From Bacteroidota bacterium (GTDB lineage: Bacteria > Bacteroidota > Bacteroidia > Cytophagales > UBA9547), in contig JANRJY010000025.1 of the NCBI GenBank assembly GCA_033763735.1, forward strand, positions 9,917 through 73,916: a stretch of DNA of 64,000 bases, in the 5' to 3' direction. Of this stretch, positions 31,686-53,490 are shown piece after piece. The first letter of the stretch is position 1. Each line of letters opens with the position of its first letter. The translations under genes and the position numbers were made by a program. Under the pieces are notes generated by a model that was not told the DNA's origin, did no database searches, and saw only the letters and a program-made list of their open reading frames with translations.

Positions 31686-32303
31686 ATGAGCAAAAAGGTA
31701 AATCAAAAAAGCACCCCAATACCGCCTAAAAAGGTTGTTGCTCCTCAAATAATTAAAGAAACCAAAAACGCTTTTTTTCAAATGTCATTTTTTAAAAACT
31801 TTATTCAATTGCTTGTGATATTGGCAGTTATACTTATTTGTATGAAAGGAAATGAAGGGTATTCGTGGGTCTGGAGTGATTTGATTAATGAAAATTTGAA
31901 ATTTATCAGTAAAAACAAACAATTGAACACTGCCCAAAAGTATCAAGCAAAGTTTGGTGTCGATGCAGCGGCCCTCGATTATATTAAACTTAAAACCCCA
32001 GATACTGCTATAATACTTTTCCCATACTACAACACTATCATTAGTGATAGTTCCGGATATCAATTTATTAAAGGGCTAGGTGGAATTAAAATAAGAGTAT
32101 GGTCAACATATTTTTTGTATCCACGCAAACTTGTGTACATGGATGAATTTGAAAAAAATAGGTATAAAAACAAGATCACACATGTAGTTTGCATGGGCAA
32201 TTGGGGTTATAATTATTTGGATTATCCGGTAGAAAGCAGAAAAATGTTTGATGTTTTGCCTTTGCATTCCAACAAATCGCAATTGAATTTAATGGGTAAT
32301 TAA
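31686..32303 (+). CDS. Hypothetical single-pass membrane protein; first gene of the glycan locus
   Basis: One TM helix (FIQLLVILAVILICM) after a Lys/Pro-rich N-terminus, then a ~150-aa extracytoplasmic domain. The stop lies 1 nt before the next ATG. Confidence 0.5.
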   Translation: MSKKVNQKSTPIPPKKVVAPQIIKETKNAFFQMSFFKNFIQLLVILAVILICMKGNEGYSWVWSDLINENLKFISKNKQLNTAQKYQAKFGVDAAALDYIKLKTPDTAIILFPYYNTIISDSSGYQFIKGLGGIKIRVWSTYFLYPRKLVYMDEFEKNRYKNKITHVVCMGNWGYNYLDYPVESRKMFDVLPLHSNKSQLNLMGN

Positions 32304-32304
32304 G

Positions 32305-33666
32305 ATGGGGATATTTGCATTTATATTATTTTTTATTTTAGGATTTGCGTTGGTTAACCGATTTGCCAATACACTTTCAATTATCGAAAAAATTGGTTTT
32401 TCTTTTCCTATTGGATTGGGGTTGGTTACTGTACTTATGTTTTTGTTGGATATCAGCAAAGTTGGAATTACAATAGCTCCTATATTATTAGGAGTAATAA
32501 TTTTAATAATATTATTTGGGTATCCACTTTTTAAAACTACACGGCTATATTGGATTGATTCTTTCAAATTACTTAACATTAAATACTCCTTTGGATGGTT
32601 TTTCTTAATTGGATTTATAATTTACTTACTTTATGGTATAACTTCTAAAGGACTTTATTGGCCTCCTGCAGAACACGATTCGTTGACAGGATACGACTTA
32701 CAAGCCAAAATGATAGCAAATGAAGGTACATTTGTAACAAGTCAATTTGATTATCCTTACAACAGCACCTATGACTTAGCAAGGTTTATTTACCCTCCTT
32801 TATCATCTGCTGGATTTGCATTAGCTTATATATTTGGATTTGACAATAGTAAAATAACAGTTATCTTATTGTTTTACAGCCTTTTAATCTCATTTTATGG
32901 ATTAATCCGTAAGTCAATTAATGATACTTGGGCGCTGTTATTCACTTTTTTTATGATGATAACACCTGAAATGTTTTCGCATGCCTCTCTTTCACTAACA
33001 AATCTCCCAAACACAGTATATACTTCTATTTCAGTTATTTGCTTGTATTATTGGCTTATTTCCAATGATAAGTCCTATTTTATTATTTCATTAAGTTGTA
33101 TGTTTTTGAGTAATTGGAGTCGAAGTGATAGCATAGTTTTTGTAATAGCTACCCTTGCAGTTATTCTATTTTTTAACTTAAAAAATATTCAATGGAAGAA
33201 TATAATAATTTATGGAGTAATTTCAATAATTCCATTTATTGTATGGGGATTATTTATAAAGATGAATATTGGTGCAAATTCTTCTGACTTTTTTGTCAAA
33301 ACGTTGTTTTGGGATAGCCAAAAAATGTCTGAAATATTGTCCAAATGTATGGTAATTGTGCTTGGAAATGGCGTATATTATGGAATCACCTTTTTTGTAT
33401 TTGTGGCAATTGCCGGATTGAATGTGGTTGATATATTTCAAACAAGAAATCCGGTAGCAATGTTTATATTTATTGCTTGGATGGGTTATACACTTTTATA
33501 TTATCAAATAGATTATAATTTTGCAGGTAGTATTGATGCATATATTAATGCTTCGTATAAAAGAGGGATGTTTAACTTTGTACCATTATGCTGGTTCTTT
33601 ATTGGAACAAGTCCATTTTCAATAAAATGGCTGGGAAAAGCAGATATGTTTTTTAACAAAAACTAA
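32305..33666 (+). CDS. Polytopic membrane protein, possible GT-C / ArnT-PMT_2-like glycosyltransferase
   Basis: 453 aa with at least 10 hydrophobic helices by eye. The loop segment PPAEHDSLTGYDLQAKMIANEG resembles the D-E/S...A..M..G motif of PMT_2-type enzymes. Weak assignment. Confidence 0.4.
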   Translation: MGIFAFILFFILGFALVNRFANTLSIIEKIGFSFPIGLGLVTVLMFLLDISKVGITIAPILLGVIILIILFGYPLFKTTRLYWIDSFKLLNIKYSFGWFFLIGFIIYLLYGITSKGLYWPPAEHDSLTGYDLQAKMIANEGTFVTSQFDYPYNSTYDLARFIYPPLSSAGFALAYIFGFDNSKITVILLFYSLLISFYGLIRKSINDTWALLFTFFMMITPEMFSHASLSLTNLPNTVYTSISVICLYYWLISNDKSYFIISLSCMFLSNWSRSDSIVFVIATLAVILFFNLKNIQWKNIIIYGVISIIPFIVWGLFIKMNIGANSSDFFVKTLFWDSQKMSEILSKCMVIVLGNGVYYGITFFVFVAIAGLNVVDIFQTRNPVAMFIFIAWMGYTLLYYQIDYNFAGSIDAYINASYKRGMFNFVPLCWFFIGTSPFSIKWLGKADMFFNKN

Positions 33667-33670
33667 TAAC

Positions 33671-50801: not shown

Positions 50802-51380
50802 ATGTTAGTAAAAAATAATTTTAGTTTAGCAGCAAAAGTTTTGTCTGATTTTAGTAATGAAGAAAATTTTAAAAAAATTGAGCTTGCTGCCAGTTGGATG
50901 ATTGAATCAGTAAAAAACGGAGGAAAAGTAATAAGTTGTGGTAATGGCGGTTCCATGAGCGATGCAATGCATTTTGCTGAAGAGATGACCGGTCGTTTTC
51001 AAAAAAACCGACCTGCTATTGCAGCTGTTGCTATTTCGGACCCTGCTCATATAACTTGTGTTGCTAATGATTACGGATATGAATTTATTTTCTCCAGATT
51101 CGTAGAATCGGTAGGGACTAAAAACGATGTGTTATTAGGAATCAGCACCAGTGGTAATAGTCAAAATGTTATAAACGCAGTTGAAGCTGCTAAGAAAAAA
51201 GGAATAAAAACAGTGGTTTTGACGGGCAAAGATGGAGGAAAGTTAGCCTCATTAGCAGATCTTGAAATTCGAGTGGCACATCTTGGTTGGGCAGACAGAA
51301 TACAAGAAGTTCATATCAAAATAATTCACACGCTTATTCAATTAATAGAACAGGCTATTTATCCTGAACTTTGTAATTAA
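50802..51380 (+). CDS. gmhA: D-sedoheptulose-7-phosphate isomerase (phosphoheptose isomerase)
   Basis: SIS domain with [48 protein letters not shown] and [10 protein letters not shown]. Confidence 0.85.
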
Positions 51381-51386
51381 TCAATT

Positions 51387-52322
51387 ATGCAATCAGTACT
51401 TATTACAGGTGGCGCAGGCTATATTGGGTCTACGCTTACACCCATCTTATTACAAAAAGGCTACAAAGTTACTGTAGTAGACAATTTTTATTTCAATCAA
51501 AATTCGCTTTTGAGTTGCTGCTCTCACCCTAATTTCGATGTGATTGATGGCGATGCCAGAGATAAAAATTTGATTTCGAATTTGATTTCGAAGCATGATA
51601 TTATTATTCCACTTGCAGCAGTGGTTGGGGCCCCAGCATGCGATAAAGATGCTTCAGGAGCCGTTTCTTTGAATTTTGAAGCAATCAAAATGATAAATGA
51701 GCTTAGAAGTTCAAATCAAATGATTCTTTACCCTAATACCAATAGTGGTTATGGTATAGGTACTGATGGGGTGTTTTGTACTGAAGAAACGCCTTTGAAT
51801 CCTATTTCTCTTTATGGAAAAACTAAAGTTGATGCTGAAATGTTATTGCTCAATACAGGGAATGCACTAACTTTTAGATTAGCTACAGTGTTTGGTATCG
51901 GTCCAAGAATGAGGATTGATTTATTAGTGAATGATTTTACTTGGAGAGCATTTAACGACAAATTTGTAGTGCTGTTTGAAGGTCATTTTAAAAGAAATTT
52001 TATTCATGTTAAGGACGTTGCAAAAGCATTTGTTCATGGAATTGAGAACTATGATAAAATGAAGAATAACGCTTATAACGTTGGTTTAAGTACTGCTAAT
52101 CTATCAAAAATTGAGCTTTGTGATTTAATTAAAAAATATATTCCGGATTTTGTTGTAATGCAAGCTGAATATGCCAAAGATAAAGACCAAAGAAATTATA
52201 TAGTTAGTAATGCTAAAATAGAAAAAACCGGATATCTGCCTGATGTAAATTTGGATATGGGAATTATTGAGCTTATTAAAGGTTATAAAATGTTGAAAAA
52301 CAATAACTTTACAAATCTTTAA
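51387..52322 (+). CDS. NAD-dependent epimerase/dehydratase family extended SDR
   Basis: [19 protein letters not shown] and YGKTK (YxxxK). Substrate unknown. Confidence 0.65.
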
Positions 52323-53490
52323 GTAAATTCTTTCTTTTATCTTCCAAATAATTATCTGCCCTCGCCACTACACAACATAGAATCAAATTAATATAATAAA
52401 TTAAGGTGTTTTCAATTAAAAATAGGGGTACTGCAAAAAGAAATATCATAATGCCAACATTGCTTACACAATACATATAATACATAATAAAAAAGTAAAC
52501 TATTACCCCAAATAATCCAATGTCAAACTGAAGCTTCATGAAGTCATTGTGTGGATTGATAGGTTTGTCTTTGAAATTATATATAAAATGCTTTACGGTT
52601 TTCCATAGCCAATAATCAGCCTGACCAATACCATTTCCAAAAAAATAATTCAAAAATCCCCTGTTATAAATTTCGGGCAACATTGGGTTCATCATTACCA
52701 TTCTACCCGTTAGAAAATCATCTAACTTAATATGTTGTTTGCCTGTAAGTGCTAAAAACTGTGATGTGAAATAGGGCAAATTGATTGAAATAATATAAAA
52801 ACTTATATAATAAGCGAATAAAAATGAAAAGAGAGCCCATTTATTTTTATCCAATTGAAAAAAACGAATACCTCCATAATAAGCTAGTATAGAAGGCAAT
52901 AAGCCTAAAAAAGTGGCTCTTTTGTTTACAAAAAGCAAATAAACAATCGCAACTAAAAGCATTTTGTAATCTTTTTTATAAAGGAAATAAATAATAAATA
53001 TGCCGGTAATGGTTCCATAATCATATTCATTGTCCACTACATAATTGCTTTCAAAAATGGATTTTAGAAATACAAAGTCTACATTAAATTTAATCCATAT
53101 CAAATAAGTAACCAAAGCAGTAAATAATAATGCCACAACATCCGAATGGGAATATTTGACATCATAAGAAAAAATAATAATAGGACCCGCAATGATGATG
53201 ATATCTCTAAAAAATGTAAACCAATAAATAGTTTCAGGGGCAACTATTAATGAAGAAATGCATGCAAATAAAAAAAAGCCCAAACTTGTGACTAATCCTC
53301 TGTCCAACTTTAATGGGTATTTCCTCTTATTAAAAATATAATCGCATGCGTAAAAAATTAAAACGACCATCGTAACAAAAAGTGGTAATGCATACAAAAT
53401 CTGCTTGATTTCTTTAATTGAATGATACACAATCATCAAGGGTATATACAAAAAATAAGTAAGAATACTGCCTGTGTTGAGTTTAACCAT
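52309..53490 (-). CDS. O-antigen ligase/polymerase-like (Wzy_C domain) polytopic membrane protein
   Basis: About 10 or more TM helices, [10 protein letters not shown], and a periplasmic loop [17 protein letters not shown] (HNxxLxxxxExGxxG-like). Its 3' end overlaps the convergent SDR gene by 14 nt. Confidence 0.6.

Follow-up and report, generated by a model that had tools for sequence, protein, structure and literature searches.

The gene block and its surroundings

The stretch of 64,000 nt analysed here (the window), taken from the 75.8-kb contig JANRJY010000025.1 of GCA_033763735.1, the metagenome-derived assembly of an uncultured Bacteroidota bacterium, carries at positions 31686-53490 a compact block of genes (21.8 kb), which is probably a composite locus whose products glycosylate an acceptor outside the cytoplasm, with lipid-monophosphate sugars as the donors, i.e., a three-component system (lipid-phosphate sugar synthase, small flippase and periplasmic transferase of the glycosyltransferase C, GT-C, fold) multiplied several fold. 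All the statements on presence or absence in the surroundings of the locus apply to the window.

The open reading frame (ORF) map places 20 co-directional genes on the + strand between 31686 and 52322 (Table 1), with 13 gaps of 1-12 nt, three overlaps of 4, 23 and 29 nt, and three wider gaps of 80 nt (34210/34291), 28 nt (44674/44703) and 98 nt (50703/50802), in agreement with the packed 20-gene block recognised in the preliminary description of this DNA, which had been made from the sequence alone. The - strand gene g52309 is convergent to the block and overlaps its last + strand gene by 14 nt. Housekeeping genes flank the block, tsf on its upstream side and one for a TolC-like OEP on its downstream side. 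The AT-richness of the block, formerly judged by eye, was computed as a GC content of 29.3% in the locus vs 33.4% in the rest of the window, with per-gene means of 0.298 and 0.334, respectively (Mann-Whitney p = 4e-4); the composition of membrane proteins may be part of the cause of this gap.

The inverted repeat in the 98-nt gap before gmhA (g50802), described earlier as a 13-bp hairpin, has 100% complementary arms; being AT-rich and without a T-run, the hairpin does not qualify as a canonical terminator, and a consensus scan detected no terminator-like site on the + strand at 34000-50700. Just past the hairpin, 30 nt upstream of the gmhA start, the TATATTTG box (50765-50772) matches TAnnTTTG, which we take to be the Bacteroidota -7 promoter element, and may serve as an internal promoter for gmhA and the following short-chain dehydrogenase/reductase gene. 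The sigma-70 and TAnnTTTG motifs are found at chance frequency across the window, and the promoter motifs are therefore uninformative on the transcription units.

Table 1. Features of the block, with the families and solved structures matched by their products. Cassette A and the triad are the conserved modules described in the text. GDP, guanosine diphosphate; NDP, nucleoside diphosphate; GT2, glycosyltransferase family 2; SAM, S-adenosylmethionine; SDR, short-chain dehydrogenase/reductase; TM, transmembrane; DMT, drug/metabolite transporter; DHFR, dihydrofolate reductase; Dol-P-Man, dolichyl-phosphate mannose.
Feature	Position	Strand	Length	Assignment	Matches
g31686	31686..32303	+	205 aa	bitopic protein, K-rich N-terminus	no Pfam or NCBIfam match
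g32305	32305..33666	+	453 aa	polytopic; PMT_2-type (GT39/GT83-like) GT-C candidate	PMT_2 E=1e-3, 19.7 bits (gathering threshold 26.1)
g33671	33671..34210	+	179 aa	RibD_C/DHFR-like NADPH reductase, between GT-C genes	RibD_C E=3.9e-19
g34291	34291..36315	+	674 aa	DUF7657+DUF7654 membrane protein	DUF7657 E=2.7e-95 (320 bits), DUF7654 E=2.2e-32 (112 bits), both above gathering thresholds
g36318	36318..37559	+	413 aa	NDP-sugar 3-C-methyltransferase (TylC3/TcaB9 type); cassette A gene 1	D-mycarose 3-C-methyltransferase 4rv9, residues 4-413, E=2.5e-49; TcaB9 also full-length
g37556	37556..38509	+	317 aa	GDP-sugar 4,6-dehydratase (Gmd-like)	GDP_Man_Dehyd E=8e-55; under TIGR01472 cut-off
g38487	38487..39242	+	251 aa	GT2 polyprenyl-phosphate sugar synthase candidate, no TM helix	best solved relatives Dol-P-Man synthase 5mlz (E=1.4e-20), ArnC, GtrB sll0501; NCBIfam PpgS, PgfS, ArnC under cut-offs
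g39244	39244..39927	+	227 aa	class I SAM methyltransferase	Methyltransf_11 E=6.6e-19
g39936	39936..41717	+	593 aa	GT-C-fold transferase (model); end of cassette A, start of triad	no Pfam or NCBIfam match
g41730	41730..43736	+	668 aa	DUF7657+DUF7654 GT-C-fold transferase (model); triad gene 2	DUF7657 E=5e-102 (342 bits), DUF7654 94 bits, both above gathering thresholds
g43742	43742..44674	+	310 aa	GT2 polyprenyl-phosphate sugar synthase candidate; triad gene 3	Dol-P-Man synthase 5mlz E=2e-13, ArnC and GtrB also among best solved relatives; NCBIfam AglJ (best) and PpgS under cut-offs
g44703	44703..45422	+	239 aa	sugar-1-phosphate guanylyltransferase (HddC-like)	NTP_transferase; HddC E=9.5e-40, 137 bits (cut-off 300)
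g45432	45432..46259	+	275 aa	soluble EpsE/TuaG-like GT2, predicted cytoplasmic, no TM helix	Glycos_transf_2; EpsE E=2.4e-31, under cut-off
g46263	46263..47249	+	328 aa	GHMP sugar kinase (HddA-like)	GHMP_kinases_N, GHMP_kinases_C; HddA E=2.3e-51, 175 bits (cut-off 600)
g47262	47262..48182	+	306 aa	class I SAM methyltransferase	Methyltransf_23, Methyltransf_12
g48154	48154..48555	+	133 aa from TTG start (~127 aa from later start)	half-size EamA/DMT protein, four hydrophobic helices	EamA 30.4 bits (gathering score 28.2); no NCBIfam or PDB match
g48566	48566..49774	+	402 aa	second NDP-sugar C-methyltransferase (TylC3/TcaB9 type)	Methyltransf_13/Methyltransf_14 E=1.7e-48
g49777	49777..50703	+	308 aa	Fcl-like GDP-4-keto-sugar epimerase/reductase	Epimerase; GDP-L-fucose synthase E=2.9e-43, under cut-off
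Inverted repeat	50724-50736 + 50745-50757	.		perfect 13-nt arms, 8-nt loop
g50802	50802..51380	+	192 aa	GmhA sedoheptulose-7-phosphate isomerase	NF001628, 277.5 bits (cut-off 265), passed
g51387	51387..52322	+	311 aa	SDR sugar epimerase/reductase	Epimerase E=1e-30
g52309	52309..53490	-	393 aa	polytopic, weak Wzy_C (O-antigen ligase/polymerase-like) similarity	Wzy_C E=2.3e-5, 24.7 bits (gathering score 31.7; weak match)

Candidate membrane transferases and donor-forming enzymes

The four large polytopic proteins of the preliminary description (453, 674, 593 and 668 aa) are all encoded in the block, and the GT-C fold, which had been set beforehand as the test for such proteins, holds for both families that were modelled. 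The AlphaFold models of g39936 and g41730, built on deep alignments, have predicted local distance difference test (pLDDT) scores of 90.7 and 91.6, respectively, and in the Foldseek comparison with the PDB, the ranks 1-23 of g39936 (STT3, ALG9/12, ArnT, PglB, AftA/B, Pmt; probability 1.0, TM-scores of 0.29-0.50 normalised to the query) and the ranks 1-18 of g41730 (STT3/PglB, DPY19, ArnT, Emb, AftA/D) were all occupied by GT-C enzymes. For both models only GT-C enzymes precede the noise, with EmbA-C, AftA/B/D and Pmt1/2/4 also among the matches; the TM-scores of the two against the solved GT-C structures are modest (0.26-0.50 normalised to the query), as is presumably usual between GT-C families, and the approximately 13 helices per model, within the range of 8-13 set for this superfamily, concur with the hydropathy profiles. 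By these models, g39936 and g41730 belong to the GT-C fold, to which g34291, a paralogue of g41730 with 35% identity and the R-x-D-E-W motif in common, is assigned by paralogy.

Just after TM helix 1 of g39936 lies the motif W39-N-D41-E42, of which W39, D41 and E42 do not vary among 57 sequences, while the R-x-D-E-W motif, noticed earlier at the same place in g34291 and g41730, was confirmed as R82-x-D84-E85-W86 of g41730, with R82 and D84 invariant and E85 and W86 conserved in at least 90% of 65 sequences (g34291 included). Because of the K-rich N-termini and the positive-inside rule, both acidic motifs are predicted to be periplasmic, as is likewise the acidic motif after TM helix 1 of the known GT-C enzymes. 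The extracytoplasmic C-terminal domain is strongly conserved in the g39936 family (13 invariant residues at positions 464-572).

Neither g39936 nor any of its 56 aligned homologues matches Pfam or NCBIfam; DUF7657 and DUF7654 are Pfam families without literature, and no paper on DUF7657 was found in a literature search. The profiles of the three GT-C families retrieved nothing meaningful among the PDB sequences, and the profile-profile comparison between these families gave no significant match; since the absence of a profile match is expected for GT-C enzymes, the fold evidence alone counts. The ArnT/PMT_2-like loop formerly ascribed to g39936 was retained in part, as W39, D41 and E42 of its WNDE motif are invariant, but the protein has no match to PMT_2 or any other Pfam family and its likeness to ArnT is of the fold level only. 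The PMT_2 label itself had been misplaced, the weak match to this family belonging to g32305. PMT_2 is matched by 32 of the 37 members of the g32305 family at E<=0.01 (best E 6.6e-9), and some homologues carry the source name GT39; on these sequence profiles, g32305 probably belongs to a PMT_2-type family, its own profile matching no solved structure. The preceding gene product, g31686, has a single TM helix (~residues 35-53) followed by a ~145-aa extracytoplasmic domain, and the pair looks like a split or two-subunit GT-C enzyme. The assumption that g31686 is the detached C-terminal domain of g39936 was rejected, no BLASTP similarity being found.

Next to the transferases are encoded g38487 and g43742, candidate polyprenyl-phosphate sugar synthases of the DPM1/GtrB/ArnC type according to their relatives (Table 1), in keeping with the two GT2 enzymes proposed earlier, one of which, g43742, bears the C-terminal TM helices (two, at ~residues 242-260 and 273-301). 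The adjacency of the DPM1-type GT2 genes suggests that g39936 and g41730 use a lipid-phosphate-linked donor. The third GT2 that had been listed is g45432, and the small four-helix EamA-like protein is g48154, which passes the Pfam threshold. By analogy with ArnE/F, g48154 is a candidate flippase for lipid-phosphate sugars; no protein of the window matches GtrA (PF04138, GtrA_DPMS_TM), and this four-TM protein is present instead.

All the four SAM methyltransferases and three SDR enzymes (g37556, g49777 and g51387) of the preliminary description were found, two of the methyltransferases being sugar 3-C-methyltransferases. The matches to Methyltransf_13, Methyltransf_23 and Methyltransf_14 on both g36318 and g48566 make up a three-part architecture, that of 3-C-methyltransferases comprising a zinc-binding N-domain, a SAM domain and a C-terminal domain; g48566 has the same counterparts in the related loci as g36318, with 27-28% identity. 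The g39244 product is probably an O-methyltransferase, judging by its family, and g37556 is nearer to Gmd 1n7g (E=2.8e-47) than to the GDP-heptose 4,6-dehydratase 7us5 (E=1e-8). The pathway to GDP-D-glycero-alpha-D-manno-heptose (GmhA, HddA, GmhB, HddC), listed earlier as a GDP-heptose pathway, is retained in part: GmhA passes the family cut-off, whereas the HddA- and HddC-like proteins score under theirs and no GmhB phosphatase is encoded in the locus. As a side observation, RibD_C/DHFR-like reductases are not usual in glycan loci, and g33671, which has no homologue in the related loci, is without an obvious role.

A Pfam scan of all the window ORFs of at least 110 aa gave no match to Wzx of the multidrug/oligosaccharidyl-lipid/polysaccharide superfamily (Wzx/MOP, Polysacc_synt), an initiating phosphoglycosyl transferase (PGT; Bac_transf/WecA type), Wzc/Wza, an ABC2_membrane + ABC_tran exporter pair of the ATP-binding cassette (ABC) type, or DUF2304, so the absence of Wzx, PGT, Wzc/Wza and ABC exporter genes stated previously is borne out within 64 kb; outside the locus, none of the ORFs without a Pfam match is polytopic. 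As for the convergent Wzy_C-like gene g52309, its position and similarity stand as described, but the score lies under the gathering threshold; neither a PDB match nor a homologue in the 80 related loci was found, and its membership of the system is uncertain.

Conserved modules in other genomes

The conservation of the gene neighbourhood, proposed earlier as a check, was examined, and three modules were found to recur in other genomes; judging from their sequences and order, at least three modules, each conserved independently of the others, are fused in the locus, which is not one unit. The first module is the g31686+g32305 pair, found at ~50% identity in two other Bacteroidota metagenome contigs (L089 and L090, one labelled Cytophagales), where the g31686 orthologues (49-55% identity) lie directly upstream of those of g32305 (L089 9414-11362, L090 8667-11347), amid housekeeping genes and without sugar-pathway genes. 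In L090, a GT2 gene lies between the pair and a tsf of 74% identity; in the window, too, the pair neighbours tsf. Because of this conservation beside tsf elsewhere, g31686/g32305 is regarded as a separate unit and not as part of the variable island, and the notion that horizontal acquisition brought in the whole 21.8 kb as one island was rejected as far as the left end is concerned.

The second module, cassette A (36318-41717), consists of the genes of the 3-C-methyltransferase, the dehydratase, the GT2, the methyltransferase and the GT-C enzyme, and recurs in L007, L009 and L011 at 57-62, 42-47, 60-61, 61-62 and 42-44% identity, respectively, with looser versions in L003 and in Patescibacteria loci. 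Among its genes, the orthologues of g36318 (57-62%) occur in L007, L009, L010 and L011, and those of g38487 (61-75%) and g39244 (61-78%) in L007, L009, L011 and L081. The third module is the triad (39936-44674) of a g39936-type GT-C, a DUF7657 protein and a GT2 with TM helices, which is present in 14 of the 80 genome loci, all from Bacteroidota (Saprospiraceae, Chitinophagales, Cytophagales); in 10 of the 14, the GT2 following DUF7657 is 60-67% identical to g43742. The synthase-GT-C adjacency (g38487-g39244-g39936 and g41730-g43742) is kept in other genomes. Beyond the modules, orthologues of g45432 were found in L005 (36%) and L066 (56%), the latter containing also those of g46263 (~70%) and g51387 (71%).

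The related loci contain soluble GT2, FkbM/RfbT-type methyltransferases and the membrane proteins LPG_synthase_TM (MprF flippase-domain) or DUF2304, the latter two being located at L057 18360-19382, L081 18731-19660 and 16860-17183, and L005 6908-7252; the flippase/activator component appears to be interchangeable between the loci. Neither a PGT nor an exporter is encoded within 10 kb in L057 and L081. The loci of the DUF7657 relatives include L005, with Wzx, and L006, with Wzx, an ABC exporter and a GT9 heptosyltransferase.

Among 1.84 billion representatives, the g39936 family makes up 357 clusters (50% identity) at E<=1e-30 and 1,623 at E<=1e-3, and its relatives are encoded in 137 stretches of the genome collection, the best 80 of which underlie the counts of taxonomy, triads and related loci. 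These 80 are all metagenome-assembled genomes (MAGs) or a single-cell genome and span more than 10 phylum-level groups: ~35 belong to Bacteroidota and 14 to Patescibacteria, the rest to Omnitrophota, Desulfobacterota/Myxococcota, Nitrospirota/Nitrospinota, Margulisbacteria-related groups, Gammaproteobacteria and others. The homologues are 35-48% identical across the phyla, and some Bacteroidota genomes have two copies of the family (L061/L063, L039/L054, L014/L031). Of the 51 loci with both flanks complete, 28 have a DPM1-type GT2 recognisable by BLAST at no more than 10 kb from the g39936 homologue.

Some features were observed beside the related loci and elsewhere in the window. In the Bacteroidetes MAG locus L081, SMEK/CTD10 (ABC-3C system) and DUF2326 genes (2911-5820) lie ~4 kb upstream of the glycan locus; in L057, a gene just upstream of the triad (8242-9666) encodes a ~475-aa protein with a weak, sub-threshold match to a type IX secretion system (T9SS) C-terminal sorting domain, and an ORF of equal size is at a comparable position in L067 (5039-6466). 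The window itself contains a GldN-like gene, in line with its Bacteroidota origin; a WbqC-like gene (62172-62798), of a family tied to O-antigen sugar modification, alone beside infC and rplT, ~9 kb off the locus; and a low-GC patch (0.29-0.30) at 3126-4981, encoding a 480-aa soluble protein without a Pfam match, with a stand-alone response-regulator receiver gene adjoining.

Proposed pathway, precedents and alternatives

The results support periplasmic action of lipid-phosphate synthases together with several GT-C enzymes over a pathway of the Wzx/Wzy or ABC type, and the several-fold three-component glycosylation suggested in the preliminary description is upheld by the GT-C folds, the PMT_2-type family of g32305, the relatives of the synthases, the absence of Wzx, PGT and exporter genes, and the gene context of a DUF7657 relative in Streptococcus uberis. 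In the proposed pathway, GDP-activated sugars would be made in the cytoplasm, heptose via GmhA, the HddA-like kinase and the HddC-like guanylyltransferase, with GDP-mannose possibly used too. The Gmd-like dehydratase g37556 would give 4-keto-6-deoxy intermediates, to be C-methylated by the two TcaB9-type 3-C-methyltransferases and reduced or epimerised by the Fcl-like and other SDR enzymes, O-methylation also being possible. At the inner membrane face, g38487 and g43742 would load the sugars on polyprenyl phosphate, the four-helix g48154 being the candidate flippase, and the periplasmic GT-C enzymes presumably paired with these synthases (g39936, the two DUF7657 paralogues and the g31686/g32305 pair), each with an invariant acidic motif following TM helix 1, would transfer single sugars from the lipid carrier to an acceptor. 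By analogy with the characterised systems, the acceptor is most likely a glycan made by genes outside the window, e.g., a lipid-linked or lipopolysaccharide (LPS)-linked polysaccharide, which would be decorated post-assembly as in the Gtr, Gac/Scc and GT136 systems. Of the two periplasmic activities envisaged earlier, decoration is supported, whereas polymerisation is possible, with no specific support.

In S. uberis (L001), an ABC-type rhamnan locus ends with a DUF7657+DUF7654 gene flanked by the genes of a 315-aa GT2 and of GtrA, this trio coming after an RgpF gene and a Sulfatase-family gene that encodes a predicted glycerol phosphate (GroP) transferase (PMC12235971); because of the position between GT2 and GtrA, this context supports side-chain decoration from lipid-phosphate sugars. 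The protein belongs to the same Pfam family as g34291 and g41730, with identity of only 25-29%. The GT-C enzymes SccM and SccQ of S. mutans add glucose (Glc) side chains to the rhamnan from Glc-P-Und provided by SccN and SccP (PMC11754754), and GacL of S. pyogenes has the counterpart role (PMC9574508). Alike in these Scc/Gac systems (SccN/SccM, SccP/SccQ; GacI/J/K/L), a GT2 makes sugar-P-undecaprenol and periplasmic GT-C enzymes add side chains to a separately made polymer, and the S. mutans locus resembles the block in having two synthase/GT-C pairs (PMC11754754). Some sources label the streptococcal DUF7657 proteins 'RgtA/B/C/D-like'; these have no experimental name, and any identity with SccM or SccQ is putative. 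However, the streptococcal systems differ in their Gram-positive hosts and Glc or N-acetylglucosamine (GlcNAc) donors, and the genes of the backbone (ABC-type rhamnan) are in the same locus, none being present in the block.

The three-component systems of Gram-negative bacteria, in which a lipid-phosphate synthase, a small flippase and a periplasmic GT-C act on O-antigen linked to undecaprenyl diphosphate (Und-PP) or on lipid A, have been described as widespread, and new GT-C families are still being founded, such as GT136 in 2024 (PMC11127046). The plan of synthase, small flippase and GT-C is shared by GtrA/GtrB/Gtr*, Klebsiella GmlABC, Citrobacter ORF12-15/GT136 and ArnC/ArnE-F/ArnT, and ArnT is among the structural matches of both g39936 and g41730. 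However, each of the Gtr/Arn-type systems has one synthase and one GT-C, in contrast to four GT-C genes and two synthases in the present block, which has an EamA half-transporter but neither a GtrA nor a multidrug and toxic compound extrusion (MATE) flippase. The GT-C families also differ (DUF7657 and one without a Pfam model), and so do the donors, which in the block are probably GDP-derived C-methyl-branched deoxy sugars; to our knowledge, such sugars are not known as lipid-phosphate donors.

In the 'dual-chain' pellicle (Wps) pathway of Lactococcus lactis, a GT-A enzyme and not a PGT starts the glycan on undecaprenyl monophosphate, with a C55-P-GlcNAc primer, extension by WpsC-F, the GT-C polymerase WpsI and the ligase WpsJ (PMC9574508). 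Several GT-C enzymes act outside the membrane there too, but the Wps system has a Wzx-type flippase and a small GT-A activator, neither of which was found in the window. Of the related loci, L005 has both DUF2304 and Wzx, L081 has DUF2304 and L006 has Wzx; DUF2304 is presumably the equivalent of the GacJ/WpsB activator. In the mycobacterial system of decaprenyl-phosphate arabinose and mannose (DPA/DPM) with Emb, Aft, Mpt and PimE, many GT-C enzymes likewise use one or two lipid-phosphate donors, and the window models match AftA, AftB, AftD and Emb in fold; however, these enzymes polymerise the glycan, and the phylum, sugars and protein families differ. The earlier statement that no characterised Bacteroidota system has such a design agrees with the literature search, which found no GT-C systems in Bacteroidota, but precedents do exist outside the phylum, and the principle is not new because of Scc/Gac, lactococcal Wps and mycobacterial Emb/Aft.

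A number of observations weigh against decoration by the block as proposed above. The PMT_2 match of g32305 is below the threshold; the missing GmhB and the sub-cut-off scores of the HddA- and HddC-like proteins count against the GDP-heptose supply; and the soluble g45432 is not needed for single-sugar decoration. For g48154, no relative with demonstrated flippase activity was found, and the related loci have LPG_synthase_TM, DUF2304 or Wzx instead of an EamA-like gene. Besides, since the g39936 homologues are found in Patescibacteria and other phyla, an LPS-specific acceptor is not general for this family.

The same chemistry may be directed to a non-polysaccharide acceptor, i.e., to lipid A or core in the manner of ArnT, Rgt and Lgm, or to proteins or lipoproteins in that of PMT and the streptococcal Pgf system, which seems doubtful but deserves consideration. 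The family of g32305 is of the PMT_2 type, to which ArnT and the protein O-mannosyltransferases belong, the g31686/g32305 pair resides amid housekeeping genes without sugar-pathway genes in two other contigs, and the cross-phylum occurrence of the g39936 homologues, including Patescibacteria, together with their conserved C-terminal domain, fits a conserved non-LPS acceptor; the 'RgtA/B/C/D-like' naming of some DUF7657 proteins points the same way. A polysaccharide is nevertheless indicated by the sole interpretable gene context of DUF7657, that of S. uberis, and the block contains no gene for a candidate acceptor protein. A mixed version is possible, where g31686/g32305 serve a housekeeping acceptor and the island a variable one.

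The main rival to the decoration of a glycan made elsewhere, although we consider it unlikely, is an oligosaccharide pathway primed on lipid monophosphate, of the type of the L. lactis Wps pellicle or Haloferax Agl N-glycosylation, in which a DPM1-type GT2 makes the polyprenyl-P-sugar primer, its cytoplasmic extension and modification fall to g45432 and the methyltransferases, and flipping is followed by GT-C polymerisation or en bloc transfer to a polysaccharide or protein. With such a pathway, the missing PGT would be understandable, as would the soluble EpsE-like GT2 that is inside the locus and recurs in related loci, and the several GT-C enzymes per synthase; the best NCBIfam match of g43742, albeit under the cut-off, is AglJ, the archaeal Dol-P-hexose initiating enzyme, while L057 and L081 hold several soluble GT2 with no PGT within 10 kb, and the C55-P-GlcNAc primer of L. 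lactis is a precedent (PMC9574508). Yet the characterised cases use a Wzx-type flippase, in place of which the window has only the four-helix EamA-like protein, and no DUF2304/GacJ-type activator is present in it; the likeness to STT3/PglB is of the fold level only, with TM-scores of 0.3-0.5, and the lone soluble GT2 could act on a conventional Und-PP intermediate made elsewhere. Less likely than this pathway, and on the whole improbable, is a fragment of an ordinary O-antigen or capsule locus with the PGT, flippase and exporter elsewhere in the genome, g52309 as polymerase or ligase and the GT-C enzymes as accessory ones. The weak Wzy_C-like gene abutting the block, the DUF7657 relatives in loci with Wzx (L005, L006) or with an ABC exporter and GT9 heptosyltransferase (L006), the low GC with sugar-modification genes typical of O-antigen loci, and the view of the genome being 64 kb wide speak for it. 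However, four GT-C enzymes and two DPM1-type synthases to one soluble GT2 are the reverse of the conventional ratio, and the conserved cassette ties the sugar-modifying genes to a DPM1-type GT2 and a GT-C; the Wzy_C match is sub-threshold, with g52309 absent from all 80 related loci, and Wzx, PGT and exporter genes are lacking within at least 10 kb on either side.

A further and rather improbable extension of the proposal is that the conserved core of the 593-aa GT-C, DUF7657 and GT2, or the whole block, is a self-contained Gram-negative glycan assembly line without PGT or Wzx, primed on polyprenyl monophosphate and building or polymerising the glycan in the periplasm by several GT-C enzymes from C-methyl-branched deoxy-hexose or deoxy-heptose lipid-phosphate donors. 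Were it true, the block would be to Bacteroidota what arabinan synthesis is to mycobacteria or pellicle synthesis to lactococci, and the work would be done by two GT-C families without a characterised member.

Surface antigens are known to be diversified by periplasmic glycosylation from lipid-phosphate sugars, the GT-C enzymes of which are hard to spot by sequence. Against this background, the new elements are two candidate uncharacterised GT-C families, one of which is outside Pfam and known only from uncultured bacteria (in the best 80 of 137 stretches), a conserved link between a branched-sugar pathway and a lipid-phosphate synthase with a GT-C, and the occurrence of several such modules together in a single locus of Bacteroidota. 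Cassette A, with its GDP-sugar 4,6-dehydratase, 3-C-methyltransferase, DPM1-type synthase and GT-C, predicts lipid-phosphate-linked branched-chain sugar donors, and the Bacteroidota triad of two different GT-C enzymes and one synthase hints at sequential periplasmic additions. If the proposed reading of the block as a composite glycosylation locus is true, these genes would provide concrete targets for the study of the envelope glycans of environmental Bacteroidota, which are little known so far.

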